From NCBI GenBank assembly GCA_022710775.1, contig JAKLGH010000004.1:9277-73276 (forward strand): 64,000 nucleotides of DNA, in the 5' to 3' direction. Positions 7,790 to 50,935 of the stretch are shown in pieces. This stretch comes from Patescibacteria group bacterium (GTDB taxonomy: Bacteria; Patescibacteriota; Minisyncoccia; Minisyncoccales; UBA5738). Position numbers and translations under genes: made by a program. Each line of letters begins with the position of its first letter. Within the stretch, counting starts at the first letter, position 1. The notes beneath the pieces were generated by a model, which was given only the letters and a program-made list of their open reading frames with translations, was not told where the DNA came from and searched no databases.

Positions 7790-7796
7790 CGGCGTG

Positions 7797-22693: not shown

Positions 22694-23971
22694 ATGTGGT
22701 ACCAACGATTAACTCAAATTTTTAAGATTAAAGACTTGCGAAGCAGGATTCTTTTCATTTTTGGGATATTCGCGCTGGCGCGTTTGATGGCCAATATTCC
22801 CATACCCGGCATTGATTTAGAGAGGCTGCGCATGTTTATGGACCAGTTTCAAAGTTTTAAGCTGCTGGGCGCTTTTACCGGCGGCTCAATGGATAATATG
22901 TCGGTAGCCATGCTTGGTTTGGGGCCGTATATCACCGCGATCATCATTTTACAGCTGCTCACAATGATTTTTCCGTCTTTAGAAAGGATGTATAAGGAAG
23001 AAGGCGAAGCGGGACGCAGTAAATTCAACCAATACGCGAGGATCGCGAGCATTCCTCTCGCGGCCTTGCAAGGATATGCCATGCTGGTTTTGCTTACGCG
23101 TCAAAACGTTGCTCATTTCGATTCACCGATTATTTTATTCGCGGCGCTTGCGACCGTAACGTCCGCGTCCCTGCTTTTGATGTGGCTGGGAGAACTTATC
23201 TCAGAAAAAGGGATCGGGAACGGAGTATCGCTGCTGATCTTTGCCGGCATTATTTCAAGTTTTCCAACCAGTTTGCGCCAGATCATATTTGACTGGGATC
23301 CGACCAAAACCCTTAGCTACATCCTGTTTATGATAGCTTCGGTGGCTATTATTGCCGGGGTTGTTTTGATCAACGAAAGTCGGCGGAACATCCCGGTTTC
23401 TTATGCCAAGCGCGTGAGAGGAAATAAAATGTTCGGAGGAGTTTCCACTTATTTGCCTTTAAATATTAATCCTGCCGGGGTTATACCGATTATTTTCGCT
23501 TTATCGATTTTGCTTTTTCCTTCAATGATAGCCAGTTTCTTGGGCGGATACTCTGGATTTGTGGGGCAGGCGGCAACCGCGGTCAACAATTTTTTCAATA
23601 ACCAGCTTTTTTACGGAATTGCTTACTTTATTCTTGTTGTTTTGTTCACGTATTTCTATACGGCAGTGACTTTTGATCCGAAAAACATTGCCTCAAACCT
23701 CCAGAAAATGGGAGGATTTGTGCCGGGCATCAGGCCGGGAACGCCGACAGCAACCTATATGTACTATATTTTAAACCGGGTTTTGCTGGTAGGCGCCGTG
23801 TTTCTTGGCTTGATTGCCGTTATGCCTTCGATCATCGGTGCCGCTACCCAGGTCAACACATTCTCGTTTATGGTGGGCGGTACTTCGTTATTGATCGCGG
23901 TGAGTGTGATTTTGGAAACAGCACGCCAAATTAACGCCCAATTGCAAATGCGCGAATATGAAACTTTCTAA
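22694..23971 (+). CDS. secY: Preprotein translocase subunit SecY
   Basis: 425 aa, 10-TM pattern, in the canonical position after rplO. Confidence 0.92.
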   Translation: MWYQRLTQIFKIKDLRSRILFIFGIFALARLMANIPIPGIDLERLRMFMDQFQSFKLLGAFTGGSMDNMSVAMLGLGPYITAIIILQLLTMIFPSLERMYKEEGEAGRSKFNQYARIASIPLAALQGYAMLVLLTRQNVAHFDSPIILFAALATVTSASLLLMWLGELISEKGIGNGVSLLIFAGIISSFPTSLRQIIFDWDPTKTLSYILFMIASVAIIAGVVLINESRRNIPVSYAKRVRGNKMFGGVSTYLPLNINPAGVIPIIFALSILLFPSMIASFLGGYSGFVGQAATAVNNFFNNQLFYGIAYFILVVLFTYFYTAVTFDPKNIASNLQKMGGFVPGIRPGTPTATYMYYILNRVLLVGAVFLGLIAVMPSIIGAATQVNTFSFMVGGTSLLIAVSVILETARQINAQLQMREYETF

Positions 23972-24752
23972 CAACACTAACTTGGAATCTCAAAAAAAAA
24001 GTGCGGATCTTTCAAATAACAACGGAAATGGGAATCAAAAGCAGAAAGTGATAATCATTTTCGGGCCTCCGGGATCAGGCAAGGGAAGCCAGGCCGATCT
24101 TTTGTCGAAAAAATTCTATTTTTATAATCTTGAAACAAGCAAGGTCCTTGAGGAGAAGTTTAAAAAGGCGCGCTCCAACGAATCTATCGAAGTTGACGGT
24201 AAGAAATATCTGATTGCCGATGAAGCTAAGCTTTGGAGGGAAGGAATTCTTTGCAGCCCGACGATGGTCACTTATCTGATCAAGAAACAGATCGAGGAAA
24301 TTTACTCGATGAGGAAATCTTTGATCATGACCGGATCGCCCCGGACGCTTTACGAGGCCCAGCAATTAATGCCATACCTTAAGGAGAAATTCGGCAAAGA
24401 AAACATCTCCGTGATCTTCTTGAAGCTTACGGCCAAGCAGACGATTTTCCGTAACACCAACCGCCGCATCTGCGAGTTGATGAGGCATCCTATTCTTTAT
24501 ACCAAGGAAAACGCTCATCTTACGCGCTGTCCTCTGGATGGATCAAAGCTGTTGCGGCGGAAAGGCTTGGACAGTCCGGAAACCATCAAGGTGAGATTAA
24601 AGGAATACGAACAAAGGACCCTCCCCCTGCTCAATTACTTTAAAGAACAGGGCTTGGAAATCAAAACGATCAATGCGGGACAGCTTGTGGAGAAAGTTTT
24701 GAAAGACGTTCTCAAAGCTCTCGGAAAAGACTATAAAAATTACGAACTTTAA
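23958..24752 (+). CDS. adk: Adenylate kinase (N-terminal N/Q-rich extension)
   Basis: IIIFGPPGSGKGSQ P-loop. Position after secY. Overlaps the secY stop. Confidence 0.85.
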   Translation: MKLSNNTNLESQKKSADLSNNNGNGNQKQKVIIIFGPPGSGKGSQADLLSKKFYFYNLETSKVLEEKFKKARSNESIEVDGKKYLIADEAKLWREGILCSPTMVTYLIKKQIEEIYSMRKSLIMTGSPRTLYEAQQLMPYLKEKFGKENISVIFLKLTAKQTIFRNTNRRICELMRHPILYTKENAHLTRCPLDGSKLLRRKGLDSPETIKVRLKEYEQRTLPLLNYFKEQGLEIKTINAGQLVEKVLKDVLKALGKDYKNYEL

Positions 24753-24808
24753 ACGAAAAATTGGCTACCCCGGGTTTCTCCCCTGGGTAGTCTACTAAAG
24801 AAACCAAA

Positions 24809-25600
24809 ATGATCTCGATAAAAAGTCCGAATGATTTGGAATTGATGCGCCAAGGAGGCCGGATTTTGGCTGTAATTTTGTATCAAGTTTCAAAAGAGGT
24901 CAAACCGGGGGTTGCAACCAGGGATCTGGACCGGCTGGCTGAAAGCCTGATCTTTGAACTGGGCGGAAGTCCGTCTTTCAAGGGATATAACCGCTTTCCC
25001 GCGGCTATGTGTATTTCCGTTAACGAGGAAATCGTCCACGGCATACCCTCGGACCGGGTTCTTAAAGAAGGCGAGGTGGTAACACTCGATTTGGGAATAT
25101 TGTATAAGGGTTTTCACAGCGATATGGCTATAACAGTTGGAGTGGGGAGCATTGAGCCCGAGATCCAGCGATTAATCCGCGTTACGCGCAAAGCGTTAAA
25201 GCGGGGGATAAAAAAGGCTCGGGTTGGCAATACATTCGGGGATATTGGCAACACGATCGAAAGATATGTCGAAGGCCAGGGTTTTGGCGTGGTTCGAGAG
25301 CTTTGCGGGCATGGTATTGGAAAACGCCTGCATGAAGACCCTCAGATTATGAATTTCGGAAAACGACGCAGCGGCCCTGCTATTAAAGCCGGAATGACTT
25401 TTTGCATTGAACCGATGGTAACCATTGGAGACTGGCACGCTAAGATTGCGAAAGACGGCTTAAGCTACGTAACTAAAGACAAAAGCTGGGCTGCCCACTT
25501 CGAACATACGATCGCGGTTTTGCCCGAAGGTCCGGAAATTCTTACCCGTTTGGAAGGAGAATCCGAGAACCGAGAACTTGATGAAGAAGAACCGGAATAG
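24809..25600 (+). CDS. map: Type I methionine aminopeptidase
   Basis: 263 aa. Metal ligands in DLG..Y.G.HSDMA, HGIG and FCIEP/EHT context. Confidence 0.9.
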   Translation: MISIKSPNDLELMRQGGRILAVILYQVSKEVKPGVATRDLDRLAESLIFELGGSPSFKGYNRFPAAMCISVNEEIVHGIPSDRVLKEGEVVTLDLGILYKGFHSDMAITVGVGSIEPEIQRLIRVTRKALKRGIKKARVGNTFGDIGNTIERYVEGQGFGVVRELCGHGIGKRLHEDPQIMNFGKRRSGPAIKAGMTFCIEPMVTIGDWHAKIAKDGLSYVTKDKSWAAHFEHTIAVLPEGPEILTRLEGESENRELDEEEPE

Positions 25601-25606
25601 GCTTAG

Positions 25607-25633
25607 CGCCGCAGAAATGCGGCGTTTGTCTTT
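25607..25633 (+). terminator. Rho-independent terminator after map
   Basis: cgccgca-gaaa-tgcggcg followed by TTTGTCTTT. Confidence 0.65.
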
Positions 25634-25733
25634 GATAAATCAGCCCGTTGTGATAAATTTAAATAACAATAATGCTGCGCGCGGATTGTCGCAGTATTTC
25701 TTAGGATATCAATTATATATTAATTAAAAGATC

Positions 25734-26471
25734 ATGGTTAATCCACGCTTATCCGTCATCGTGCCTTCGTATAACGAAAGCCAGAGGATACTCCAAACCC
25801 TTGAAGCCCTTGATTCTTACTTAAAAAAACAGAATTATTCTTATGAGATCATTGTCGTAAGCGACGGCTCCAAGGATGATACAGCCAAGGTAGTCGAAAG
25901 CCTTAAATCAAAGGTGGCCAATTTACGCCTGATTGCGAATACGGATAATCACGGCAAAGGATATGTTGTCCGCCAAGGAATGCTGGAAGCGCGCGGGGAA
26001 TATCGTTTATTTACCGACTCGGATAATTCTACGCCCATTGAACAGGTTGAGAAGCTATGGCCGTATTTTGATCAGGGTTTTGACGTGGTGATCGGTTCCC
26101 GAGATGCCAAAGGAGCGGTTCTTGATCCGCCCCAGCCCATGCTTCGCCGTTTTTTGGGAGAGATGTTCGGCTTTCTTACCAATCTTATCGTTGGGACATG
26201 GGGCATTGCCGATACGCAATGCGGGTTCAAGGCGCTGACCGCTAAAGCAACGGTTGAAATCATGCCGTTATGCAAGATTGAGAGATTCGCTTTCGATCCG
26301 GAGATCCTGGCCATTGCCAAAATGAAGAAAAAAAAGATCAAGGAGGTGGGGATCTTGTGGAAGAACGATACGCGCAGCACCGTGAAATTCAAGTCGATGG
26401 TAAAAATGTTTTTCGATCTGTTTAAGATCCGTTTAAACATGGTCAACGGAGTTTATGGAAGAAACAAATAA
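25734..26471 (+). CDS. Family 2 glycosyltransferase (dolichyl/polyprenyl-phosphate glycosyltransferase-like)
   Basis: VIVPSYNE N-terminus and a DSD (DxD) motif. 245 aa. Confidence 0.7.
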   Translation: MVNPRLSVIVPSYNESQRILQTLEALDSYLKKQNYSYEIIVVSDGSKDDTAKVVESLKSKVANLRLIANTDNHGKGYVVRQGMLEARGEYRLFTDSDNSTPIEQVEKLWPYFDQGFDVVIGSRDAKGAVLDPPQPMLRRFLGEMFGFLTNLIVGTWGIADTQCGFKALTAKATVEIMPLCKIERFAFDPEILAIAKMKKKKIKEVGILWKNDTRSTVKFKSMVKMFFDLFKIRLNMVNGVYGRNK

Positions 26472-27495
26472 TAATTATTGCCAGTTTCCGTCGCAGTTTC
26501 GTTATGATCCGGTTTCCCAGGATTGGGTGATTGTTGCGGTTGGCCGCGGCAAGCGGCCCGAAGCGTTCAAAAGCAACCGCGCCAAGATCATGGTACCTCC
26601 GCAGAATTGCGTTTTTTGCAACCAAAAAAACGAAGATCCCAGAAAGTTGGTGATGGTTAGCGGAAAGGTTTTTAAAGGGTCTGGTTTGCCGGCGGATTGG
26701 ACCTTGATCGTTATTCCCAATAAGTTCCCGGCATTCTGCCCAGCCGAGAAGATTGAGAAGGTCAAGATCGGAAAATTTTATCAAATAATGACCGCGGCCG
26801 GTTTTTGCGAAGTGGTTATAACCCGGGGCCATGACAATCATATCTTTCAAATGGAAACGGCTCAGGTTAAGGAGCTGATCGATGCTTATCAGATCAGGTA
26901 TCTGGCTTTAAAAAAAGAGAAGTTTGTCAAGTTTATTTCCATTTTCCACAATTACGGCCCTGAAGCCGGCGCTTCCCAGCCGCATCCCCATTCGCAGATA
27001 ATCACCAGTCCGTTCGTTGATGCCGATTTTAACCGATCGCTTACTATGGCTAAACGTTATAAAGCCAAGAACGGAAAATGCATTTATTGCGAAATGAACA
27101 AATTGGAGAAAAAAGAAAAAAGCCGGATCGTTTTCGAGAACGACCACTTTTTGGCGGTTTGCCCGTTTGCTTCCAAGACGGCGTTCGAAACCATCATCAG
27201 CCCCAAAAAGCATTTTTCCCGGTTCGAGGAAATAAGCGAAGAGATGAAGTTGAGTTTAGCCGAAGCGTTCCGGACGGTTTTGGGGAAGATCAAGAATGGC
27301 TTAAACGACCCATCGTTTAATTATTATCTTCATACCTCTCCGTCCGATGGAAAACTTCACCCGTATTATCACTGGCATTGGACGATTTTTCCGAGGATCG
27401 GAATCCAGGCCGGTTTCGAGATCGGAACGAAAATGGAGATATCAACCATCGAGCCGGAAGCGGCAGCCGATTATTTGCGCAACCAAAACGCTTGA
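26455..27495 (+). CDS. galT: Galactose-1-phosphate uridylyltransferase-like (HIT superfamily)
   Basis: 346 aa. CVFC zinc motif and the HPHSQ active-site motif. Confidence 0.7.
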   Translation: MEETNNNYCQFPSQFRYDPVSQDWVIVAVGRGKRPEAFKSNRAKIMVPPQNCVFCNQKNEDPRKLVMVSGKVFKGSGLPADWTLIVIPNKFPAFCPAEKIEKVKIGKFYQIMTAAGFCEVVITRGHDNHIFQMETAQVKELIDAYQIRYLALKKEKFVKFISIFHNYGPEAGASQPHPHSQIITSPFVDADFNRSLTMAKRYKAKNGKCIYCEMNKLEKKEKSRIVFENDHFLAVCPFASKTAFETIISPKKHFSRFEEISEEMKLSLAEAFRTVLGKIKNGLNDPSFNYYLHTSPSDGKLHPYYHWHWTIFPRIGIQAGFEIGTKMEISTIEPEAAADYLRNQNA

Positions 27496-27690
27496 TGCGA
27501 GTTTCTTTATATAATAGACCTACTGCTCAAAGATTTCCTACTGCGCCAATCCTCTTTAAGCTACGAAAAATTCATCAGTCGGCGGCAGGCTTTAAGCTAA
27601 GCATGCCTTTTCCTTCTTCATTTTTCTCGCTCAGAAGATGCTTTGCTCGCTACGAGAATCTTTAAGCATTAGGCCTAAAAAACAAACAAG

Positions 27691-28416
27691 ATGAAATATT
27701 ATTTATTTGGAAATTGGAAATGCAATCCGGTCAGCGCTCAGGAGGCAAAAAAACTGATTTCAGATACCGCCAAAAGCGTTAAAAGAACGGAAAAAGTTGA
27801 AGTCGCTGTTTTTCCGCCTTTTTGCTATCTTTACGAGGTTGTCGGCAAAAAGAAGGAAGTAGCGGTTGGCGCGCAGAATTGCTGCTTTAAGGAAGCCGGC
27901 GCGTTTACCGGAGAAGTGTCGCCTAGGCAGATTGCCGATCTTGAATGCAAATACGTTTTGATCGGCCATTCGGAACGCCGGAAAATATTTTCCGAGACCG
28001 ACAGTTTCGTGAATGATAAAACAAAACTGGCCTTGGCTTGCGGCCTGGTTCCGGTCGTGTGCGTGGGGGAGACTGACGAAGAAAGGACGGCCGGGAGAGC
28101 TGTTGAGATCGTTACGGGCCAGATCGAGGCTGGTCTGAAAGACGTCGATGCCAAGCAGGTTTTGGTCGCTTACGAGCCGGTTTGGGCCATCGGAACAGGT
28201 AAGGCTTGCGGTCTCGCCGAGGCCCGGGAGATAAGCCGAATGATCAAAGAGGCGCTTGGTTCGGAAACCCCGGTTTTATACGGAGGCAGCGCCAACGCCA
28301 AAAACGGAGCGGTTTATTTGAAGGAAGCAGGCTACGACGGTTTATTGGTCGGCGGGGCATCGCTGAAAGCCGATGAGTTTGCCAAAATGTTTGAAGAGAT
28401 CGAAGGTTTGGATTGA
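27691..28416 (+). CDS. tpiA: Triosephosphate isomerase
   Basis: NWKCN, IGHSERR, AYEPVWAIGTG and YGGS motifs. Confidence 0.92.
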   Translation: MKYYLFGNWKCNPVSAQEAKKLISDTAKSVKRTEKVEVAVFPPFCYLYEVVGKKKEVAVGAQNCCFKEAGAFTGEVSPRQIADLECKYVLIGHSERRKIFSETDSFVNDKTKLALACGLVPVVCVGETDEERTAGRAVEIVTGQIEAGLKDVDAKQVLVAYEPVWAIGTGKACGLAEAREISRMIKEALGSETPVLYGGSANAKNGAVYLKEAGYDGLLVGGASLKADEFAKMFEEIEGLD

Positions 28417-28447
28417 TGTTATGGCTATAATTTCTTCGTTTTTTACA

Positions 28448-28474
28448 AACTGCCGTATCATGCCGGCAGTTTTT
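28448..28474 (+). terminator. Rho-independent terminator after tpiA
   Basis: ctgccg-N8-cggcag followed by TTTTT. Confidence 0.6.
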
Positions 28475-28658
28475 GGCATTAGCGCGAAGAGGGTTTTTAG
28501 GCCGCGCTTTTTTTGAGCCGCGCAAAACGCGACTAATTAGAATAGACCAAATTAAAATTGGTTTTTTGTTGTTGCGCCTGATTGACCGACTTTGGCCGAT
28601 TTGTTAGCATTTTTATATACGGTAAAACCTTTTTGTCCTTCTCGGCCAAGGAACAAGG

Positions 28659-29192
28659 GTGGCGGAGCAAGTAAAAACCATGGCAAGGTTCGACGAGGGT
28701 TATTTCTACAACCCCACTAAAGGCAACTTAACATTGGATGGGACGCTGGAAGAAATGATGAATTACATGCTGGAGAAACCAGACATCAACTACGAAATCG
28801 TGGTCGGTTGTGATTCGTCTTCCGACGAAGAACCTCATTTTCCCGCGGCGATAGTTATTTTAAGGAAAGGAGCTGGCGGCCGGTTTTTTCTAAAAAAGAT
28901 CACTTATTCAAAAGAAAGGAAATTTTATAACTTCCGCCAGAGGATCCTGGAAGAAACCTTGCTATCTTGCGAGCTGGCCTTGGTTTTAAAAGAGATGCTC
29001 GAAAAAAAGAGAACGGTATGGCCAAAAAATCTTAAATGGAAATTCATCAATATTCATGCCGATGTGGGTGAGCGCGGCTCAACCAAGGAAATGATCAAAG
29101 AAGTGACCGGTTTGATACGAGGCAGCGGTTTTATTCCGATCATTAAACCGTTTTCTTTTGCCGCATCGGCCATTTCGGACCGGTATACCTAA
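28659..29192 (+). CDS. YkuK/DUF458-like RNase H-fold protein
   Basis: FYNPTKG...VVGCDSS...KGAGGRFF...RQRILEET pattern resembles DUF458. The start may be GTG 28659 or ATG 28680. Confidence 0.5.
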   Translation: MAEQVKTMARFDEGYFYNPTKGNLTLDGTLEEMMNYMLEKPDINYEIVVGCDSSSDEEPHFPAAIVILRKGAGGRFFLKKITYSKERKFYNFRQRILEETLLSCELALVLKEMLEKKRTVWPKNLKWKFINIHADVGERGSTKEMIKEVTGLIRGSGFIPIIKPFSFAASAISDRYT

Positions 29193-29319
29193 TCAAGACT
29201 TACGCAGTCGCCCCATCTTCTGCGTTAAAGTGTTCGGGTGCTAGTTGCCAAGCCTTGGCTGGGTTCCGGCGCGCCCGCGCGCTTTGCCTTGAACCTGTGC
29301 CAACTGCGCAAGTCTTGAT
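29192..29319 (+). promoter_or_regulatory. 17-bp inverted repeat enclosing a G+C-rich segment of about 95 nt, directly upstream of alaS
   Basis: atcaagacttAcgcagt (29192-29208) pairs with actgcgCaagtcttgat (29303-19319 region, i.e. 29303-29319), with one mismatch. Spans from the upstream stop codon to 2 nt before ATG 29321. Confidence 0.45.
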
Positions 29320-29320
29320 A

Positions 29321-31093
29321 ATGTATCCTGATAAACAAATGACATCAAAAGACCTTCGTAAAAATTTCTTGGATTATTTCGCGAAACGGGGACACAAGAT
29401 AGTGCCGTCTTCGTCTTTGGTCACAAACGATCCAAGCGTTTTGTTCGCGACGGCCGGCATGCAGCAGTTCAAGCCGTATTATCTGGGCCAGGAGTCGCCA
29501 TACGGTTTGAATGTGGCGAGCTGCCAGAAATGCGTCCGGACTTCGGATATCGATGAAGTCGGAGATCACAGCCATCTGACTTTTTTCGAGATGCTTGGTA
29601 ATTTTTCTTTCGGAGGATACGGCTCAAACTTCAAAGAGGAAGCGATAAAGCTGGCTTACAATTTTATTTTCGCAGAACTGAAATTGCCCCTCCAGGACTC
29701 TTTTTTCACGGTATTCGAGGGAGATGCCGTTGTACCGGCGGATAAAGAATCTGAAGCCATCTGGACTCGAATGGCGGGCAATAGGGCAACGATCCAGCGT
29801 TTCGGCCGGGCTGATAATTTTTGGGGGCCCACCGGGGAATTCGGGCCTTGCGGTCCGACTACGGAAATCCATTACCGGAACACGGAAATCTGGAACATCG
29901 TCTTCAACGAGTATTACCAGGACAAGGACAAGTCTTTGAAACCGCTGCCAAAAAAAGGCATTGATACGGGTATGGGTTTTGAGCGCCTTTTAATGATGGT
30001 TCAGGATAAGCAAACGGTTTATGACACCGATTTGTTTGTGCCGATCATGGAAAAGATACCCGGTACCGACCTGAAGGCGAGAAGAATAGTGGCCGATCAC
30101 ATTAAAAGCGCGGTTTTTCTGATAAGCGACGGCGTTTTGCCTTCCAATCTGGAAAGAGGCTATGTTCTACGGCGTATTTTAAGGAGGGCGATCCGGTATG
30201 GACGGATTTTAGGCCTGACCGGCGATTTTTTGATGCCATTGGCCCAAACGGTAATCTCGATATACCGGGAGGCGTATCTTGACCTAGCCGTCAATGAAGA
30301 CGGCATTCTGACCGCCATTCATGCCGAACAGGAAAAATTCGATAGAGTTATTGATGAAGGGTTACGGGAAGTCAAAGCGCTGGAAAAAGTTTTAACGGAG
30401 GCTGGCGCGGCTTCGATAAAACCGGAGGGTCTTGCGGAGCTTTCGGCCAGCGATATTATGATCAACCGTCTTTTTGATCTTTACCAAAGCAAGGGAATGC
30501 CGCTGGAGCTTGTTTTTGAAGAATTCGACAATGACTCGGTGAAATGCGATAAAGCCGCAATCCAGGCAAGATTTAATGAAAAACTGAAACATCATCAAGA
30601 GATTTCCCGCGCCGGCGCCGAAAAAAAATTCGGGGGCATCGGCGGAACCGCGACCGAGGAAGCGAAAAAATTACATACTGCCGCCCATCTTCTGCATGCG
30701 GCATTAAGAAGAGTGCTGGGAACGCATGTCAAACAAATGGGTTCCGATATCACTTCGGAGCGTTTGCGCTTTGATTTTTCCCATCCGGCAAAAATGACAG
30801 CCGGGGAACTTGCCAAGGTTGAAGACCTGGTTAATTATGCGATCAAAGACAATATCCCGGTCATAAAGGAATTAATGTCCTATGAGGAAGCGATTGCCGG
30901 AGGGGCGCTGGCTTTTTTTAAGGAAAAATATCCCGCCCAGGTTAATGTTTATACCATTAAGGATTATTCCAAAGAGATTTGCGCCGGCCCTCATGCGGAA
31001 CGGACAGGGAGCCTGGGACAATTCCGGATTGTAAAAGAAGAATCATCGGGTGCCGGCGTGAGGCGGATCAAAGCGGTTTTGTCGCCCCGATGA
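29321..31093 (+). CDS. alaS: Alanine--tRNA ligase, short form (no C-Ala domain)
   Basis: TSKDLRKNFLDYFAKRGH N-terminus. Editing-domain HTAAHLLH and CAGPH motifs. Ends just after the editing domain. ATG at 29321 or 29339; the track start 29255 runs through the inverted repeat. Confidence 0.85.
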   Translation: MYPDKQMTSKDLRKNFLDYFAKRGHKIVPSSSLVTNDPSVLFATAGMQQFKPYYLGQESPYGLNVASCQKCVRTSDIDEVGDHSHLTFFEMLGNFSFGGYGSNFKEEAIKLAYNFIFAELKLPLQDSFFTVFEGDAVVPADKESEAIWTRMAGNRATIQRFGRADNFWGPTGEFGPCGPTTEIHYRNTEIWNIVFNEYYQDKDKSLKPLPKKGIDTGMGFERLLMMVQDKQTVYDTDLFVPIMEKIPGTDLKARRIVADHIKSAVFLISDGVLPSNLERGYVLRRILRRAIRYGRILGLTGDFLMPLAQTVISIYREAYLDLAVNEDGILTAIHAEQEKFDRVIDEGLREVKALEKVLTEAGAASIKPEGLAELSASDIMINRLFDLYQSKGMPLELVFEEFDNDSVKCDKAAIQARFNEKLKHHQEISRAGAEKKFGGIGGTATEEAKKLHTAAHLLHAALRRVLGTHVKQMGSDITSERLRFDFSHPAKMTAGELAKVEDLVNYAIKDNIPVIKELMSYEEAIAGGALAFFKEKYPAQVNVYTIKDYSKEICAGPHAERTGSLGQFRIVKEESSGAGVRRIKAVLSPR

Positions 31094-31142
31094 CGGAATT
31101 GAAACCGGCTTTTTGGCCTAGTCTCAATTTAAACCTTTTTCT

Positions 31143-31216
31143 CTGCGAAACGGAAATTTGGAACGGAGCAGCAAAAGAGACATGCTGCCAAAGGCAAGGC
31201 AACGTCGGCAGCGGGT
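31143..31216 (+). repeat. Promoter-upstream repeat element, copy b (core CGGCAGCGGG at 31206-31215)
   Basis: ctgcgaaacgg...aaagagacatgctg...gcaacgtcggcagcgggt. Followed by TGgTATAAT at 31240-31248. Confidence 0.6.
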
Positions 31217-31341
31217 CGTTAGGTATTAAACCCGTTTTTTGGTATAATTTAGCTAGCGTTCAATCGCGCGGCGGGGTTCTCTGCATTTTGCGGAAGAATC
31301 AAGCAAAAATCATTAAAGCGTAAGTCAACCATAATATCCAC

Positions 31342-32712
31342 ATGGTGAAAAAAGTATTAGATATCATACCTCCTAAAAAACAGGAAGCATCGAAAGAAAA
31401 TGCTTCGCGGATCGGTAAAGAAAAGGCGGAAATAAAGCCGGCTCCTAAACCGAAGATAACTTATATCCCGAAGAAAATTCCCGCTCCGGTTTTTAAGCCA
31501 AGCGGGATGAAATTGCCGTCAGGAATGGTTTTTTCGCCGAAAACGCTGCTTGCTTCGAAAATCGCGATAGTTTTAATTGTGGTTTTGGGCGCATTTATTT
31601 TCCTGGACAATAAACTGGCCAAAGCGACAATCACGATTTGGCCTGAAACCGAGGATTTAAGATCGGAAGTTCAGCTGACTGTAGATTCGTCGCTGAAAGA
31701 GCCGGACCTGGCCAAAAAAGCCATTCCGGGAACCGTGATCACGGCGGAAAAAACCTATTCCGACGATTTTGCGGCTACCGGAAAGAAAAACAGCCAGAAC
31801 AAAGCGCAAGGAACGGTTAAAATCTATAATAATTTTTCCATTGCCCAACGCTTGATTAAAGGTACGCGTTTGCAGGCTCCTCTGGAAAAATTTCAGCCTG
31901 CTTTATCGAAAGATGAAACTCCGTGGTTCCGGACGGCCGCTGATGCGACCATTGGCGCCAAAGCTTCCGCCGATGTTCTGGTCGTGGCTGACGGGACAGG
32001 GGAGAAATATAATATCGAACCGTCTATTTTTTCCATTCCCGGTTTAGTCGGGACGCCGCAATATACTTTTATCTACGGGCAGTCTTTTGAAAAATTCCGG
32101 GGCGGGGAAAAAGGCGCTTTACCCGAAATCAAACAGGAAGATCTCGACGGGGCGAAAGACGCTTTAACCAAAAAAGCCGAAACCGAGATCAAAAAAGACA
32201 TGGAAATCATGGTTCCGGAAAACCACGTTCTGATCGCGGAAACCGTGAAGTTTGAGGTTTTGGACGCTTCGCCGGCCGCCGTTGCCGGGACCAATGTGGA
32301 AAAATTTACTTATCAAGTCAAAGTTAAAGCTACTGGCCTGGTTATTGATAAAAAAGAGCTCGACGCGATTGCCAAAGAACATCTTTTAAGCCAGGTCGAA
32401 GATAATTTCGGGATTTACGAAAAAAGTTTTTTTGTAAAATATACCTATGTTCCTTTTGCGGCATCAACGCCGCCTGTCTCAACCGGCGTATCGGTTGCCG
32501 ATATAAAAGTGGAAGCGGGCGCGCGTGTTTACCAGCCGATAGACGAAGTTTTCGTGAAGAAGGGCCTGGCTGAAAAGAAAGTAGAAGTGGCCAAGTTTTT
32601 TTTAATGAACCAATCCAAGGTTAAAAACATAGAAATGGATGTTTCTCCGTTCTGGCGGACAAATATTCCCAGGGACTTGGAGAAAATCCAAGTAAACATG
32701 AATTTCGATTGA
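31342..32712 (+). CDS. Hypothetical single-pass membrane protein (456 aa)
   Basis: K/P-rich N-terminus, one TM (IAIVLIVVLGAFIFL), and a large extracytoplasmic domain. No family recognised. Confidence 0.6.
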   Translation: MVKKVLDIIPPKKQEASKENASRIGKEKAEIKPAPKPKITYIPKKIPAPVFKPSGMKLPSGMVFSPKTLLASKIAIVLIVVLGAFIFLDNKLAKATITIWPETEDLRSEVQLTVDSSLKEPDLAKKAIPGTVITAEKTYSDDFAATGKKNSQNKAQGTVKIYNNFSIAQRLIKGTRLQAPLEKFQPALSKDETPWFRTAADATIGAKASADVLVVADGTGEKYNIEPSIFSIPGLVGTPQYTFIYGQSFEKFRGGEKGALPEIKQEDLDGAKDALTKKAETEIKKDMEIMVPENHVLIAETVKFEVLDASPAAVAGTNVEKFTYQVKVKATGLVIDKKELDAIAKEHLLSQVEDNFGIYEKSFFVKYTYVPFAASTPPVSTGVSVADIKVEAGARVYQPIDEVFVKKGLAEKKVEVAKFFLMNQSKVKNIEMDVSPFWRTNIPRDLEKIQVNMNFD

Positions 32713-33415: not shown

Positions 33416-33805
33416 ATGCCACGTCTTCTCGGAGTAAACATTCCAGACAACAAACCTATATTGATTTCTTTGGGTTATATTTACGGAATAGGCCGGCGAT
33501 CGGCTGAACTTGTGTTAAAGGAAGCCAAGATCGATCCTCAAGCCAGGGCGAAAACGCTTACCAGCGAACAGCTGAACAGCCTGCAGGAAATTGTTAAAAA
33601 GAATTACCGCGTTGAAGGAGATTTAAAAAGGGACATCATGATGAATGTAAAGCGCCTGAAGGATATTATGAGCTGGAGGGGAATGCGCCACATGAGAGGG
33701 CTGCCTTGCCGCGGACAAAGGACGAAGACCAATAACCGTACGGTGCGCGGAAATGTCAGAAAGACCGTTGGTTCGGGCAGGAAGCCGGCAGCTACTCCCA
33801 CCTAG
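33416..33805 (+). CDS. rpsM: 30S ribosomal protein S13
   Basis: MPRLLGVNIPDNK N-terminus. 129 aa. Confidence 0.92.
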   Translation: MPRLLGVNIPDNKPILISLGYIYGIGRRSAELVLKEAKIDPQARAKTLTSEQLNSLQEIVKKNYRVEGDLKRDIMMNVKRLKDIMSWRGMRHMRGLPCRGQRTKTNNRTVRGNVRKTVGSGRKPAATPT

Positions 33806-33959: not shown

Positions 33960-34412
33960 ATGGGTAAAAAGCACGTAGCTACCAAAACAAAAGAAGAGCT
34001 GCTCAAGGAGAGAGATGTGATCGAGGAAAAGACCAAAAAGGAGGTCAAGATCAAAACCCCGTCGCGCATGCGCGAAGGGAGGGTTTACATTTCTTCGTCC
34101 TATAACAATACGATCGTTTCGCTTACCGATGACTTAGGAAACATCCTTTGCTGGAGATCGGCAGGAAGCATCGGTTTCAAGGGTACCAAAAAAGGAACGC
34201 CGTTCGCGGCTTCAAAAGTAGCGGAAGCGGTAGCGGAAGCGTTAAAGAAGATGAATATCGAGAAAGTCCAGGTTTTTGTGCGGGGCATAGGTTCCGGACG
34301 CGATTCGGCCGTTCGTTCATTGGCGGCGCGCGGAGTGGATATTGTTTCAATAAAGGACATTACGCCTATACCGCATAACGGCTGCCGGCCTCGGAAAGTA
34401 AGACGCGTATAA
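33960..34412 (+). CDS. rpsK: 30S ribosomal protein S11
   Basis: 150 aa. RVYISSSYNNTIVSLTD and PHNGCRPRKVRRV. Confidence 0.92.
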   Translation: MGKKHVATKTKEELLKERDVIEEKTKKEVKIKTPSRMREGRVYISSSYNNTIVSLTDDLGNILCWRSAGSIGFKGTKKGTPFAASKVAEAVAEALKKMNIEKVQVFVRGIGSGRDSAVRSLAARGVDIVSIKDITPIPHNGCRPRKVRRV

Positions 34413-34445: not shown

Positions 34446-35075
34446 ATGAACAACGATAAATGTAAAATTTGCCGAAGGTCGGGACAAAAACTTTTTCTAA
34501 AGGGGGAGCGTTGCTTTGGCCAAAAATGCGCCATTGTAAGAAGGCCTTATGCCCCGGGAAAGAAAGGCAAGAGAAGGACGAAAAACCTATCAGAATACGG
34601 ACGCGAACTTCGAGAAAAGCAAAGTTTAAGGAATTGGTACGGGTTGCGCGAACAGCAGTTCAAAAATTACGTGCGCAAAACTTTGGCTAAAAAGGGCCAG
34701 GCGGAAAATCTTGGCCTGATATTGATGAAATCCCTGGAGAGCCGGCTTGATTCCGTGGTATTCCGCCTTGGCTTTGCGGCGTCTCGGGTTTTGGCACGCC
34801 AATTGGTGAGCCATAATAATTTTCTCGTCAACGGCAAGCCGGTAAATATCCCGTCTTACCAAGTTAAGAAAGGGGATGTAGTTTCAGTAGCTCCCAGAAA
34901 GATGAAGAAAGTATATTTTCAGGGCATTCTTCCCGGATTGAAGAAACATAAAGCGCCGACCTGGCTGGTCTTGGATGCCGATAAAATGGAAGGAAAGATG
35001 GCTGATGAAATGAAGATGGAAGAGATAAATCCTCCGGGCGAGATTGAATCGATTTTCGAATATTACGCCCGCTAA
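34446..35075 (+). CDS. rpsD: 30S ribosomal protein S4
   Basis: 209 aa. N-terminal CKICRR...C..KC zinc motif and an S4 domain. Confidence 0.92.
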   Translation: MNNDKCKICRRSGQKLFLKGERCFGQKCAIVRRPYAPGKKGKRRTKNLSEYGRELREKQSLRNWYGLREQQFKNYVRKTLAKKGQAENLGLILMKSLESRLDSVVFRLGFAASRVLARQLVSHNNFLVNGKPVNIPSYQVKKGDVVSVAPRKMKKVYFQGILPGLKKHKAPTWLVLDADKMEGKMADEMKMEEINPPGEIESIFEYYAR

Positions 35076-35228
35076 TCAAATTTAAAAATAATTGCGATCT
35101 GTGAAGGGTTGGAAATAATTCCGGCCCGCGCGGACGAAAACCGTTGAGGCTCTGGGCGCGAAGATTGATTGCGAACGCTCGAGGGCTTACGGTTAACAGT
35201 TCAGGCCTATGGCTTGGCAAAAAAGACA

Positions 35229-35915
35229 ATGATTCCCTTACCGCTTAAACCAAAAGTAATCGAAGGAAAAGGCAATTGGGCAATAATCGAGATTGAGGCT
35301 CTTTATCCGGGATACGGCGTTACCGTGGGAAACGCTTTGAGACGGGTGCTTCTTTCATCGTTGGAAGGGGCGGCAGCGACCAAGATCAAGATTAAAGGCG
35401 TGCCTCACGAATTTTCAACGATCACAGGGGTGTCGGAAGACGTGATTACGATAATGCTCAACGTCAAACAGCTTAGGTTTAAAATGACCGGCGAGGAACC
35501 GCAAGTTTGCGTATTGAAGGGGAAAGGAGAGAAAGATATTTCCGGCAAAGATTTCGATATTCCCAGCCAATTGGAATTGATTAATCCTGATGCCCATGTC
35601 GCGACAATGACGGCGAAGACCGCCAAACTTGATATGGAGATCACGGTGGAAAAAGGCATCGGATACACATCGAAAGAAACGAAAAAGAAAGAAAAGCTCG
35701 AAATCGGCGTGATACCTCTGGATGCCATCTATACCCCGATCAAGAAGGTGGGATTCAAGGTCCAGAATATGAGGGTGGGAGACAGGACCGATTACGATAA
35801 GATCATGCTGGAGCTTGAAACCGACGGAACAATCAGCCCCGAAGACGCGTTTATGAAAGCGTCGGAAATTATCATTAACCACTTTTCATTATTTAAAGAA
35901 GCTTTCGTAAAGTAA
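35229..35915 (+). CDS. rpoA: DNA-directed RNA polymerase alpha subunit, N-terminal domain only (228 aa)
   Basis: GNALRRVLLSS motif. Alignable by eye to the E. coli alpha NTD up to its end. The stop comes 23 nt before rplQ, and no CTD-like sequence follows. Confidence 0.85.
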   Translation: MIPLPLKPKVIEGKGNWAIIEIEALYPGYGVTVGNALRRVLLSSLEGAAATKIKIKGVPHEFSTITGVSEDVITIMLNVKQLRFKMTGEEPQVCVLKGKGEKDISGKDFDIPSQLELINPDAHVATMTAKTAKLDMEITVEKGIGYTSKETKKKEKLEIGVIPLDAIYTPIKKVGFKVQNMRVGDRTDYDKIMLELETDGTISPEDAFMKASEIIINHFSLFKEAFVK

Positions 35916-35938
35916 AGCGAGGCCAATAATTAATCGAT

Positions 35939-36442
35939 ATGTACAAGCGGATAAAAGGTAAAAAATTCAGCAGAAAAACCGATCAAAGGAGGGCTTTTCT
36001 AAGGAATTTGGCGGTTAATCTGATAATGGAAGAAAGGATAACCACCACGAAAACCCGGGCAAAAGCGGCCTCTTCTTTGGTTGAAAAAATGATTACCAAA
36101 GCAAAGAAAGGCAATCTTGCGGCAATAAAACGGCTTTCCAGCATGCTTCCCCAACTGGCCGTAAAAAAGCTGATGGCTAATGTTGCGCCGCGTTTTATGC
36201 AAAGAAACGGCGGATATACCCGGATTATGAAATTGGGCCAACGCTATAAAGACGGATCAGAAATGGCCATAGTTGAGTTTATCGACCATGACGAGGTGCA
36301 TGCCGCCGAACTGGCGGAAAAAGCGAAAAAAATTACCGAAAAGAAAAAGGGTGTAAAGAAAGAAAAGGCTGCCAAGAAAGAGACGAAGAAAGCGGCAAAA
36401 ACAGCTAAGCCCGAAATTGTGGCGGAAAGCGATGGAAAATAG
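35939..36442 (+). CDS. rplQ: 50S ribosomal protein L17 (K-rich C-terminal tail)
   Basis: 167 aa. RAFLRNLAVNLI...RITTT motif. Confidence 0.9.
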   Translation: MYKRIKGKKFSRKTDQRRAFLRNLAVNLIMEERITTTKTRAKAASSLVEKMITKAKKGNLAAIKRLSSMLPQLAVKKLMANVAPRFMQRNGGYTRIMKLGQRYKDGSEMAIVEFIDHDEVHAAELAEKAKKITEKKKGVKKEKAAKKETKKAAKTAKPEIVAESDGK

Positions 36443-36478: not shown

Positions 36479-36829
36479 ATGAATCGAGAAAAATACACAA
36501 TCGACGCATCGGGAAAAGTCCTGGGTAGGCTGGCTGCCGAGATTGCTTTGCTGTTACGCGGAAAAAACAAACAAGGCTTCGTTCCTTATAAAGATGAAGG
36601 CGATTTTGTAACCGTGAAAAACGCGAAGGACGTCAAGGTTTCCGGCAGGAAAATGGACCAAAAAATTTATTACCATTATACCGGTTATACCGGAGGCTTG
36701 CGCAGAACGCCGATTAAGCGGATGCTGCAGAACAAGCCGACGGAAATTTTAAAAAAGGCCGTTTATAGAATGCTTCCAGATAATAAGTTGCGCGACAAAA
36801 TGATCAAACGGCTTAAGTTTGAAGATTAA
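36479..36829 (+). CDS. rplM: 50S ribosomal protein L13
   Basis: 116 aa: GKVLGRLAAEIALLLRGK. Confidence 0.9.
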   Translation: MNREKYTIDASGKVLGRLAAEIALLLRGKNKQGFVPYKDEGDFVTVKNAKDVKVSGRKMDQKIYYHYTGYTGGLRRTPIKRMLQNKPTEILKKAVYRMLPDNKLRDKMIKRLKFED

Positions 36830-36833
36830 TTAC

Positions 36834-37445
36834 ATGACTACTAAAGAAATTAAACCAAAGACCGCGCCGAAGGTGCGCAAGGCGCCTGCCAAGGTTAAAA
36901 AGGAAGCGGAAATAAAAGGACAAGAGCAAAAAGCAATGGCCGAAACGGAAGAAACAAAAAAAACAGCGATGGGGGAGAAGGTTTCTGCCGTCGAGCCTGT
37001 TTCTGCGGAAGAAACCGGCGACTTGGCTGATGAGAACGGAAAAACCCCTAAATCAAACCGCTACTATGAAGCTGTCGGCCGCCGCAAGACCGCAACCGCG
37101 CGCGTGAGGCTTTTTACCAGGGGCGACAAATCTTTTGTTATCAACGACAAACCGCTGGAAAAATATTTTCCGGGTGCGATTTTCAAATCCGTCATTGAAG
37201 CTCCTTTGGTGAAAATGAATATTGTAGATCGCTTCAAGATAACCGCTGTTGTCAAAGGGGGAGGGATCAATGCTCAGGCGGAAGCGATCAGGCACGGAAT
37301 TGCCCGGGCCTTGGTGATGTTTAATCTTGATTTTAAGAAACGCTTGAAAAAATCCGGATACCTGACGCGAGATTCAAGGATGAAGGAAAGGAAAAAGCCC
37401 GGTTTGCGCAAAGCCCGCCGAGCGCCCCAATGGGCCAAACGTTAG
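36834..37445 (+). CDS. rpsI: 30S ribosomal protein S9 (K/E/A-rich N-terminal extension of about 75 aa)
   Basis: C-terminal GGGINAQAEAIRHGIARAL...KARRAPQWAKR. In-frame ATG at 36834. Confidence 0.9.
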   Translation: MTTKEIKPKTAPKVRKAPAKVKKEAEIKGQEQKAMAETEETKKTAMGEKVSAVEPVSAEETGDLADENGKTPKSNRYYEAVGRRKTATARVRLFTRGDKSFVINDKPLEKYFPGAIFKSVIEAPLVKMNIVDRFKITAVVKGGGINAQAEAIRHGIARALVMFNLDFKKRLKKSGYLTRDSRMKERKKPGLRKARRAPQWAKR

Positions 37446-37575
37446 CGAACGTTTGGTACTGAGCCCAGCAGGGCGAATGTGCCGAAAACAGCGAACGTTT
37501 GGTACTGAGCCCAGCAGGGCGAATGTGCCGAAAACAGCGAACGTCTGGTACTGAGCCCAGCAGGGCGAATGTGCC
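37444..37575 (+). repeat. Tandem direct repeat, 3 x 46 nt (third copy truncated or diverged)
   Basis: Units start at 37444, 37490 and 37536: agcgaacgtttggtactgagcccagcagggcgaatgtgccgaaaac. Each can fold as GGUAC-UGA-GCCC-AGCA-GGGC-GAAU-GUGCC. Confidence 0.85.
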
Positions 37576-37595
37576 AAGTGCTAATTTTAAATTAA

Positions 37596-37627
37596 AACCA
37601 CTCCGGAATACGGGGTGGTTTTGTTTT
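37596..37627 (+). terminator. Rho-independent terminator of the rplM-rpsI unit
   Basis: ccactccg-gaata-cggggtgg followed by TTTTGTTTT. Confidence 0.7.
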
Positions 37628-44487: not shown

Positions 44488-45642
44488 TTACCGGTTTAAT
44501 TGCGCAGACCATATTCCGCTGTATTCCACCGGCATGAACCGGCGGTAAAACTCCTTTAGATTTTCAACAGGATCGACATCCGCGAATTCCTCGGGATAGA
44601 ACCACTTAGCCATCTGCTGGAGGGCGAAAAAATTAAAAAAATGGCCAACGCAACCGCTGTGGATCGCGTAAAACCGGCCGTTCTTTACCGCTTTGAGGTC
44701 TTGCCAGCCGGGGCGGCTGGTGTAGCTTTGCAATAATTTTTGCGTTTCTTCTTCGGAAGCGTAAAAACCTGTTCGCATCGAGCCCTCGGTTGCCGGCCAG
44801 TTTCCGCCGGTAATAATGATGATGTCGGGGTCTTTTTTGAAAAGGAATTCCGGATCGATATAGATGCTTTCACCCAGTTTGTAATCGATGATATTTTTTC
44901 CTCCAGCCAGAAGTATTTGCGCGCCCCAATTGTGGAGTTTGTGTACGCCGTCCTCGCCGTAAGTTTGTCCGTATTTTTGCGCTCCGCTGTTTCCTGATTC
45001 GATGTAGACTACCGGTTTTTCCTTGTCGATTATAGCAAGCCTGGATGTTACAATTTCCACTTGCGCGTCTATATAATCATTAATCTCTTTGGTCCTTTCT
45101 TCTTTATTGAACAACTGGCCCAAGACCGAAATTCCTTTTTGCGGGTTTTCCAGGGCGTCGTAGGCCGCGTTGAGAAAAACCATGGGTGCGTTCGCGGCTT
45201 TCAATTTATCAACGATTTTCAACTGCCGCCTAATCATATAGCTGTCCATCAGGACCAAGTCGGGTTTGTATGAGAGTACATCTTCGGGGTTCGTCGCGTC
45301 TTTGGCAATATCGCCTAAAACCGGTTTTTCTTTGAGTGCCGGGAATTTTTCCGTAAATTTTTCATAAGCGTCAAGATCGGAATTTTTAAGATCCGGCCCC
45401 CAGGCCGCGATTTTTCCGGGCGCGTCTTCGCCCAATATCAAAGATAATTCGTAAATATCGGAACTTTTCATCAATACGGTTCTTTGGCAGGGAGTTATGA
45501 AAACGGTTTTGCGGCCTTCCAGGTCAATGATCGATTTTCCGCTATCCGCTATTTGAACCGGTTTTTCGGAAATTTGCGTAAAATATATTGCTCCGCCAAT
45601 GATCAAAAAAATAGAAACTAATGCTACGATTTTTTTGGACAT
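44488..45642 (-). CDS. ABC substrate-binding protein, cluster A (Peripla_BP_2-like), paralog 1
   Basis: N-terminal anchor. PCQRTVLMKSSDIYELSLILG, KPDLVLMD, PGWQDLKAVKNGRFYAI. Confidence 0.75.
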   Translation of the reverse strand: MSKKIVALVSIFLIIGGAIYFTQISEKPVQIADSGKSIIDLEGRKTVFITPCQRTVLMKSSDIYELSLILGEDAPGKIAAWGPDLKNSDLDAYEKFTEKFPALKEKPVLGDIAKDATNPEDVLSYKPDLVLMDSYMIRRQLKIVDKLKAANAPMVFLNAAYDALENPQKGISVLGQLFNKEERTKEINDYIDAQVEIVTSRLAIIDKEKPVVYIESGNSGAQKYGQTYGEDGVHKLHNWGAQILLAGGKNIIDYKLGESIYIDPEFLFKKDPDIIIITGGNWPATEGSMRTGFYASEEETQKLLQSYTSRPGWQDLKAVKNGRFYAIHSGCVGHFFNFFALQQMAKWFYPEEFADVDPVENLKEFYRRFMPVEYSGIWSAQLNR

Positions 45643-45652
45643 ATTATGCGTA

Positions 45653-46813
45653 TTATTTAGAGATTTCGGTGAACCAAGTTCCGCTGTATTCGATGGGCAT
45701 AAAGCGGTTATGGAATTCCTTCAAATTAGCCTCCGGGTTGATATCCGCGAATTCCTCGGGATAGAACCACTTAGCCATCTGCTGGAGGGCGGCGAAAGCG
45801 AAAATATGCATTGTCATGCCGTGATGGATCGCGTAAACCCGGCCGTTCTTTACCGCTTCGAGGTCTTGCCAGCCGGGGCGGTTGGTAAAGCTTTTCAACA
45901 GCTGTTGGGCTTCATCTCCGGACGTGTAATATCCCATTCTCATCGAGTCTTCTACTGTCGGCCAATTGGCCCCGGTGATAATGATCACATCGGGGTTTGA
46001 TTTCAGCAAGTATTCAGGATCAATGGAAAATAATTCACCAGGCAGATCTCCGACGATATTTTTTCCTCCGGCATACTGGATCATTGCTCCCCAACTGGTA
46101 TATTGTCCGTTGACGTCTACTCCCCAAGTGCTGCCATATTGCTTGGCCCCCAAATCTCCGGTTTCCATATATACAACCGGCGCGGTTTTTTCGATCTTGG
46201 CCAGGCGGGATGTCACGATATTTATCTGTCCGTCGACAAAATCGGCAATTTCTTCGGCCCGTTCTTCCTTATTGAACAGCTGGCCCAGGACTGTGATTCC
46301 TTTTTGCTGGTTGGTCAGAATGTCATTGGTTTGGTCCATGAACGCCATTGGCATACCGGCTTCCTTAAGCCGGTCGACGCTTTTGTATTGTCTACGCGTC
46401 ATGAAATTGTCCATTACGATCAGGTCGGGGTTGTAGGACAGAACGTTTTCAGGGTCAAGGGAATCGTTATAGATGCTGCCGACCAAAGGTTTATCCGCCA
46501 AAGAAGGGAATTTTTCGGAATATTTTTTATAAGCGTCGGTATCGGAAGTTTTAATATCTTCTCCCCAGGCCACGATCTTGTCGGCGGTTTGTCCGCCAAG
46601 GACTGCTGAAAGCTCATAGATATCCCGGCTGCGGGGCAGAATAACCTTTTCGCACGGCGTCTTGAAGGTTTTTGTTTCTCCGGAAAGGTCGGTTATCTGT
46701 TTGTTCTGACTTGAAATTTCCGGTGTTGGTTCCGGAGTTTTCGAAGTTGATAAATAAAATAGTCCGGCTGCCGCGGCAGCCAAAACCAAAACAAACGGTA
46801 TTTTTCTGTTCAT
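45653..46813 (-). CDS. ABC substrate-binding protein, cluster A, paralog 2
   Basis: Same architecture as paralog 1. The C-terminal part is nearly identical to it even at nucleotide level. Confidence 0.75.
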   Translation of the reverse strand: MNRKIPFVLVLAAAAAGLFYLSTSKTPEPTPEISSQNKQITDLSGETKTFKTPCEKVILPRSRDIYELSAVLGGQTADKIVAWGEDIKTSDTDAYKKYSEKFPSLADKPLVGSIYNDSLDPENVLSYNPDLIVMDNFMTRRQYKSVDRLKEAGMPMAFMDQTNDILTNQQKGITVLGQLFNKEERAEEIADFVDGQINIVTSRLAKIEKTAPVVYMETGDLGAKQYGSTWGVDVNGQYTSWGAMIQYAGGKNIVGDLPGELFSIDPEYLLKSNPDVIIITGANWPTVEDSMRMGYYTSGDEAQQLLKSFTNRPGWQDLEAVKNGRVYAIHHGMTMHIFAFAALQQMAKWFYPEEFADINPEANLKEFHNRFMPIEYSGTWFTEISK

Positions 46814-46960
46814 TGATATCTTTTAAATATTTCTTTATTGTATCTTAATTATATCAATAATTCAAAAAACATTTTTTTATCGCCGAAATTGAAACCATGG
46901 TTTCATTCGCGATTTGTTTTGAATATTGTTTGAAAATGGGTTCTTGGGTGTTTATTGTTC

Positions 46961-46997
46961 TTAGCTCAAAGATTAGGCGGCAATATCGGCAGCGGGG
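46961..46997 (+). repeat. Promoter-upstream repeat element, copy c (core CGGCAGCGGG at 46987-46996)
   Basis: ttagctcaaagattaggcggcaatatcggcagcgggg. Followed by TGTATTATAAT at 47024-47034. Confidence 0.55.
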
Positions 46998-47080
46998 CAG
47001 CCTGGCAGATATTTTTCAAATATTGTATTATAATTCAAAGAGATCAATATCTTGAATTTAATTTAATCCAATCAAAAAAA

Positions 47081-50785: not shown

Positions 50786-50897
50786 CTGTAACAATAGTCT
50801 CTTTTTTTTGCGCGGCTCCGGGCCGAAGTTGCAACCCCGCCTTTCGGCCTAGGCTCATTCGCTGTTTTTGTTTCCGTGGAATGGGGAGGGCGTAAAG

Positions 50898-50935
50898 GAG
50901 CAGGCTCCTAATAACGCACAATACCGGCAGCGGGA
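50898..50935 (+). repeat. Promoter-upstream repeat element, copy d (core CGGCAGCGGG at 50925-50934)
   Basis: gagcaggctcctaataacgcacaataccggcagcggga. Followed by TTGCCA...TAGTATAGA. Confidence 0.55.

Follow-up and report, generated by a model that had tools for sequence, protein, structure and literature searches.

Introduction

The C-terminal domain (CTD) of the alpha subunit is textbook core equipment of bacterial RNA polymerase, as it reads UP elements, boosts rRNA promoters, and docks many activators, and it is essential in Escherichia coli. The rpoA gene examined here, in a stretch of 64,000 nucleotides of contig JAKLGH010000004.1 from a Patescibacteria group bacterium of the order Minisyncoccales (this whole stretch is called the window below), encodes only the N-terminal domain (NTD). 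This raises the questions of whether the truncation is genuine, whether the CTD is encoded elsewhere, how such alphas are distributed among related lineages, and how a polymerase without the CTD would recognize its promoters.

The alpha-NTD is enough for polymerase assembly and basal transcription (PMC8321222, citing Igarashi & Ishihama 1991, Hayward 1991, Ross 1993), and the alpha-CTD is required for UP elements and many activators (PMC8321222; for UP elements also PMC12641261). CTD-less alphas are found in Hodgkinia and Tremblaya, which are extremely reduced endosymbionts (PMC8321222, PLoS One 2021), and one sentence of that paper states that the alpha-CTD was lost in Parcubacteria, with Euglena chloroplasts being another case. 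In the reference behind the Parcubacteria sentence, Nelson & Stegen 2015, rpoA merely occurs in the core-gene list, in the paper and its supplement. In the literature search, PMC8321222 was the single paper found to mention the Parcubacterial loss, without analysis; since it already states the loss, the novelty implied by an earlier note, which had described the truncated gene from the letters of this DNA, was overstated. What appears to be new here is the mosaic distribution of the loss, the repeated deletions despite the DNA-binding surface being kept in CTD-bearing sisters, and the basic tails.

Results

The window rpoA encodes the alpha N-terminal domain only

The gene lies in the canonical order rpsM-rpsK-rpsD-rpoA-rplQ-rplM-rpsI, of which rpsM-rpsK-rpsD-rpoA-rplQ is common to the related loci examined. 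The features of the operon that bear on the question are the following.

33416..33805, + strand: rpsM (S13), from the ORF translation; as a marker it retrieved S13 orthologues in 74 loci
33960..34412, + strand: rpsK (S11), PF00411 at 7.6e-38
34446..35075, + strand: rpsD (S4), upstream neighbour of rpoA, PF00163 and PF01479
35076..35228, + strand: rpsD-rpoA spacer, GC-rich, 153 nt, with a predicted stable fold (folding)
35229..35915, + strand: rpoA, alpha subunit, N-terminal domain only (dimerisation and insert domains), from Pfam, NCBIfam and PDB alignment
35916..35938, + strand: rpoA-rplQ spacer, 23 nt, with a GAGG ribosome-binding site (sequence)
35939..36442, + strand: rplQ (L17), 167 aa, PF01196 at 3.9e-31 over residues 21-115

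The rpoA ORF starts with ATG, encodes 228 aa with the C-terminal end ...EIIINHFSLFKEAFVK, and stops with TAA at 35913-35915. A 248-aa reading from the in-frame TTG at 35169 was rejected and the 228-aa reading preferred, because the homologues begin with MIPLPLKPK. Pfam placed the Rpb3/Rpb11-type dimerisation domain (PF01193, 7e-22) at residues 26-219, split by the Rpb3/RpoA insert domain (PF01000, 2.8e-29) at residues 53-169, and PF03118 was not found in the scan of the 228-aa protein, which is without linker, without CTD, and without basic tail. The NCBIfam rpoA equivalog TIGR02027 (298 positions, cutoff 227.8 bits) was matched from position 3 to 210 with a score of 250.9 bits, and the PRK05182 sub-models scored below their cutoffs because the C-terminal third of the protein is missing. 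Against the solved bacterial alphas in the PDB the E-values ranged from 1e-44 to 1e-58, with the Clostridioides difficile alpha as the top match (1.3e-57), and residues 14-222 aligned to residues 20-231 of the 329-residue E. coli alpha; therefore, the end of the protein corresponds to about E. coli residue 237, the boundary between NTD and linker. These results bear out what had been read from the letters, namely a 228-aa alpha of NTD only, ending at about the end of the E. coli NTD, with rplQ following 23 nt downstream (rplQ ATG at 35939, rpoA stop ending at 35915).

The truncation is shared by independent assemblies and close homologues

The same RpoA is present in at least nine independent assemblies: its 90%-identity cluster has nine members, from NCBI (HOX30123.1, HRZ50980.1, HSA36701.1), JGI, ENA, and Logan, on contigs of up to 78 kb and labelled Candidatus Paceibacterota. 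Comparison of rpoA across related lineages, which the earlier note had proposed, found the truncation conserved, as the best 120 homologue clusters (67-99% identity; names among them include Nealsonbacteria DGGOD1a, on a 1.16-Mb contig, Minisyncoccales, and Paceibacterota) are without a CTD in 120/120 cases, with lengths of 210-269 aa and PF01000 and PF01193 only. In the relative L086, whose alpha is 88% identical, rpoA stops at the same point, as do the other homologues, and the comparison of the two genes gave dN 0.076, dS about 2.0, and dN/dS 0.04. The GNALRR assembly motif and other NTD residues are invariant across 28 CTD-less sequences, and from its sequence the protein is predicted to join beta and beta' in an active core enzyme.

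A premature stop in a normal rpoA could also stem from faulty sequencing or assembly or from recent decay, and error-prone assemblies do hold frameshifted rpoA genes, the one of L081 being in three pieces and the one of L084 being frameshifted inside CTD helix 1. For the window gene, however, no downstream frame contains CTD-coding sequence, the 23-nt spacer before rplQ is much too small for a CTD remnant, and neither the recurrence of the identical architecture in the assemblies and clusters above nor the dN/dS of 0.04 agrees with an artefact or a pseudogene, the probability of which we regard as negligible. The sequencing error at the stop codon that the earlier note had named is thereby excluded. 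Judged from these comparisons, the truncation of the window alpha is conserved and under purifying selection.

Search for a CTD encoded separately

An alpha cut to its NTD could be served by a CTD from another gene. The six-frame translation of the window gave 1254 stop-to-stop fragments with a minimum length of 30 aa, among which four seed CTDs found no match (best E 0.57), a 58-column CTD HMM built from 91 full-length alphas found nothing, and a lineage-tuned HMM, rebuilt with 59 Parcubacterial CTDs, found no match even at E<=50. The Pfam scan of 43 further ORFs of the window likewise identified neither PF03118 nor any helix-hairpin-helix domain, and with all these scans negative the earlier observation that the window holds no helix-hairpin-helix CTD-like ORF stands.

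Beyond the window, the CTD HMM was run in all frames over the 10 kb on either side of rpoA in 20 CTD-less GTDB genomes and found no CTD. Among 5.8 billion proteins, a CTD-profile search picked out 44 short ones with PF03118 alone, of which six were inspected: five are contig-edge pieces or frameshifted forms of canonical rpoA, sitting upstream of rplQ wherever the contig extends that far, and the sixth, P0333, is a weak match in a gene context that is unrelated and probably non-CPR. The inspected short proteins therefore give no evidence for a split gene. JGI metagenome contigs scanned with Parcubacterial CTDs yielded 58 loci, 57 of which passed the CTD HMM; of these, 53 encode CTD and NTD together in a single ORF, and the other four are cut within the CTD by the contig start. 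Across these searches of proteins, metagenome contigs, and loci, nothing pointed to a family of stand-alone CTD genes in the group.

The sequence of the present organism that was inspected amounts to about 64 kb of a genome of likely 0.6-1.2 Mb, and two arrangements that would supply a CTD from elsewhere have to be weighed against this scope. In the first, the CTD would be a separate small gene acting in trans or bound non-covalently, for which the partial view of the genome and the existence of short PF03118-only proteins in the protein database could be adduced; the fate of the six inspected proteins, the 57 Parcubacteria-like metagenome CTDs that are all fused or edge-cut, and the empty surroundings of rpoA in the window and the 20 genomes speak against it, and we consider it improbable. 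In the second, a full-length rpoA elsewhere would provide the CTD, as in Francisella, whose two alpha genes give a heterodimer (PDB 6wmp, chains A and B), and again only 64 kb of the genome are visible. However, it is the CTD-less gene that fills the canonical rpsD-rpoA-rplQ slot, under strong purifying selection, and neither the window nor any 20-kb locus contains a second alpha-like ORF. Core-gene paralogues are, as general knowledge, rarely kept by reduced CPR genomes. We regard such a second rpoA as very improbable, and a diverged separate CTD and a second rpoA elsewhere in the genome have together a small but appreciable probability.

Distribution of CTD-less alphas and number of losses

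A HMMER search over 1.84 billion representatives was conducted, and in the 150 closest 50%-identity clusters the CTD is present in 91 and absent in 59, some of the 59 being chimeras or frameshifts. A GTDB scan with one genome per species returned 80 loci, the nearest species, all bearing Parcubacteria-type names (Nealson-, Staskawicz-, Gribaldo-, Azam-, Taylor-, Zambryski-, Nomura-, Kaiser-, Harrison-, and Moranbacteria), and the label 'uncultured Saccharibacteria', carried by the binchicken MAGs, appears to be a placeholder. A normal fused CTD is encoded in 60 of the 80 loci, in one of them, L032, interrupted by a masked run, and the following 20 have no CTD.

First ten CTD-less GTDB loci: L002-L006, L009, L010, L013, L016, L017
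Other ten CTD-less GTDB loci: L026, L042, L045, L054, L055, L057, L063, L065, L075, L076

Both genes were located in 78 loci, with or without the CTD, and in each of them rplQ directly follows rpoA; the CTD deletions are therefore clean.

In a tree of the NTD only, the window RpoA falls within a clade of 124 members that is entirely CTD-less. Seven proteins were concatenated (1007 columns, 72 taxa) for a neighbour-joining tree with 100 bootstraps, which recovered the CTD-less members of the window's clade as a single group in 0/100 bootstraps, united the CTD-less L010 of the Staskawiczbacteria with the CTD-bearing L011 as sisters in 100/100, and contained a separate CTD-less clade of seven members, including Harrisonbacteria, with 96% support. 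The Staskawiczbacteria thus contain both CTD-bearing and CTD-less species. A loss-only count on the seven-protein tree gave 8-12 events with a median of 10; because this tree has short internal branches and was built by a simple method, only three to four independent losses are taken as firm on these sequences, while the higher number of 8-12 is likely.

The CTD-bearing relatives retain the residues equivalent to E. coli R265, N268, G296, and K298, which make up the DNA-binding '265 determinant' of the E. coli alpha, and therefore the CTD is not obviously dispensable group-wide. As a separate observation, the rpoA of L084 (613-1549; Candidatus Staskawiczbacteria, JAPLZB010000214.1) is frameshifted into a 265-aa ORF and an overlapping 49-aa CTD ORF, and the frameshift in CTD helix 1 may be either a sequencing error or CTD decay under way.

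Basic tails on CTD-less alphas

After the NTD, 18 of the 20 CTD-less GTDB loci carry a Lys/Arg-rich tail of 13-45 aa (median 27) with a K+R fraction of 0.26-0.53; the linkers of the CTD-bearing relatives are acidic (K+R 0.14, D+E 0.30, median 29 aa). Three CTD-less Patescibacteria representatives, P0134, P0176, and P0180, have an acidic stretch followed by a terminal KKRGRPKK, an AT-hook-like sequence, that is, one resembling a minor-groove-binding motif, which occupies the place of the missing CTD. The window alpha and L003 have no such tail, and in the best 120 clusters 62 are tail-less and 33 bear an 11-aa tail of the HEEKEKRKKTK type.

It is conceivable from these compositions that basic tails still touch upstream DNA non-specifically. 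More generally, the lost CTD may have been functionally replaced, with another element keeping the upstream DNA contact, namely the Lys-rich tails in the relatives, and another basic protein or an unrecognized subunit in the tail-less lineage of the window; upstream promoter recognition would then be changed, not lost. The frequency and composition of the tails next to the acidic linkers, and the three representative clusters that terminate in RGRPKK, favor this idea. However, the tail is missing from the very alpha of the window, from L003, and from about half of the closest clusters (the 62 above), and Lys-rich tails are common on CPR proteins, so that those of alpha may be compositional drift; since Lys-rich extensions are widespread here, for example on L17 and S9, the functional reading of the alpha tails is weakened. 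Such a replacement is accordingly held to be possible and rather doubtful.

A recurrent upstream element is younger than the CTD loss

The earlier note had suggested relating the loss of the CTD to a recurrent upstream motif. Counts of 9-mers for such a motif gave only A/T-rich words, and the sole recurrent upstream element found came from reading the intergenic regions. It is about 120 nt long, has the invariant core CAAyNyCGGCAGCGGGnC, and occurs in four copies.

7668-7860, + strand, core at 7779: element copy 1, before rpsL
31092-31287, + strand, core at 31206: element copy 2, before the ORF at 31342 (456 aa)
46886-47068, + strand, core at 46987: element copy 3, before the Band-7 gene
50818-51006, + strand, core at 50925: element copy 4, before mreB

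Each copy ends 5-25 nt upstream of -35/-10-like hexamers, and neither a consensus RNA structure nor an Rfam match was found for the element. It is absent from all 85 of the 85 other loci examined and from relatives whose CTD-less alphas are 88% and 75% identical, and the alaS-ORF spacer holding one of the copies is 248 nt in the window versus 43 nt in L086, an insertion of about 200 nt. Being absent from the relatives and inserted relative to L086, the element is far younger than the CTD loss, and there is consequently no basis for linking the two. By this comparison of sequences the element was inserted recently, at the level of the species, and it may be a repeat carrying a promoter or a site where a regulator binds.

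Other features of the operon and its surroundings

The rpsD-rpoA spacer is predicted to form three hairpins, the stretch 35076-35235 having an MFE of -52.8 kcal/mol (z = -3.3 versus shuffles), and it matched no Rfam family; on this folding prediction it may be a candidate leader or regulatory RNA. Around rpoA, predicted promoters and terminators were no more numerous than in shuffled sequence.

Downstream, L17 (35939-36442) has a C-terminal Lys/Ala/Glu-rich tail of about 50 aa and S9 (36819-37445) has an N-terminal Lys/Glu-rich extension of about 80 aa. At 37444-37581, starting from the rpsI stop codon, a 46-nt unit is repeated three times in tandem (identity 100%, 100%, and 89%), and a terminator-like hairpin comes next at 37593-37623. 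Upstream, between secY and infA (23958-32712), the ribosomal-protein supercluster is broken by about 8 kb of unrelated genes, comprising map, a GT2 glycosyltransferase, a galT-like gene, tpiA, an RNaseH-like gene, alaS, and a 456-aa ORF. L086 shares largely the same arrangement without the RNaseH-like gene, and its counterpart of the 264-aa ORF at 23958-24752 matches the ADK family. The 456-aa ORF (31342-32712), located between alaS and infA, has no Pfam match, and its position is kept in relatives (470 aa in L086 and 464 aa in L088). Further along the window, two tandem periplasmic-binding-protein paralogues at 44488-46813 on the - strand, 71-78% identical in DNA over repeat segments, adjoin FecCD/ABC transporter genes, and two mreB paralogues at 51066-52064 and 56860-57966 lie about 5.8 kb apart.

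Discussion

Based on these findings, we consider it probable that the window rpoA encodes a functional alpha that was cut to its NTD by a clean deletion, and that the polymerase of this organism works without a tethered alpha-CTD. The proposed origin is that the coding region for linker and CTD between the NTD and rplQ was cleanly deleted, that the CTD-less state became fixed in a large clade of Minisyncoccales-like Parcubacteria, and that neighbouring lineages repeatedly underwent similar deletions. What follows for promoter recognition is inferred, and so is the lack of a CTD in the rest of the genome.

In such a polymerase, the NTD dimer would still nucleate assembly through alpha2, alpha2-beta, and alpha2-beta-beta'. 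Without a flexibly tethered alpha-CTD, A/T-rich UP elements would not be readable through alpha, and activators that touch the alpha-CTD could not recruit the polymerase; contacts with UP elements and those of the class-I type would be impossible, as follows from E. coli biochemistry. Promoter strength would then come from the contacts of sigma with the -35, -10, and extended -10 elements, and any regulation would have to work through sigma, beta/beta', the alpha-NTD, or repression. Most likely, therefore, the alpha dimer would be an assembly platform only, with promoter recognition left to sigma. The absence from CPR bacteria of CRP/FNR-type activators with a ligand-binding domain (PMC12531629) fits this reading of a CTD-less polymerase.

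Several known systems resemble the alpha described here in part. The canonical RpoA (TIGR02027; 329 aa in E. coli, with NTD, linker, and CTD) has an orthologous NTD and occupies the same operon slot, but also has a linker and a helix-hairpin-helix CTD of about 85 aa (PF03118), both of which are absent from the window RpoA. An E. coli alpha consisting of residues 1-235 is not known to be viable there as the sole alpha. In reconstituted polymerase, this alpha(1-235), which has nearly the same end point as the window RpoA, gives a core enzyme that carries out basal, factor-independent transcription (Igarashi & Ishihama 1991; Ross et al. 1993; per PMC8321222), and it serves as a functional model, although it is a laboratory construct and the window RpoA is natural and apparently the only alpha. 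In Hodgkinia, Tremblaya, and the Euglena plastid, with their reduced genomes, the alpha likewise has naturally lost its CTD and kept the assembly NTD, and for the present organism the lack of a CTD in the whole genome is probable. However, the NTD is here intact and under strong purifying selection, not eroded; close relatives differ in whether they have lost the CTD, and a Lys-rich tail often goes with the loss. The archaeal Rpo3 (RpoD) and the eukaryotic Rpb3 and AC40 are assembly platforms homologous to the alpha NTD alone, without CTD (PMC13257274), whereas the window RpoA is bacterial by sequence and synteny and is presumably a homodimer. An assignment to the archaeal Rpo3 type was rejected, as NF001988 scored 16.8 bits against a cutoff of 153 and matched the last 46 residues only.

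We tentatively suggest, at somewhat less than even confidence, that many independent CTD deletions occurred in one order-level group and were usually followed by the convergent acquisition of a Lys-rich, sometimes AT-hook, tail. If so, a generic basic tail could stand in for the upstream DNA contact of the alpha-CTD, the polymerase of a tail-less lineage would work without any alpha-DNA contact, and these bacteria would be a natural experiment on the purpose of the alpha-CTD. CTD-bearing and CTD-less sisters such as L011 and L010 provide matched pairs for promoter change upon CTD loss.

For annotation, as the NCBI sub-family models miss their cutoffs here, a 'short rpoA' in these taxa should not be called a fragment. 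For the biology of the group, the CTD-less lineages match the sparse regulator repertoire of CPR bacteria, and lineages thriving without the alpha-CTD would mark the minimum that a bacterial polymerase requires.
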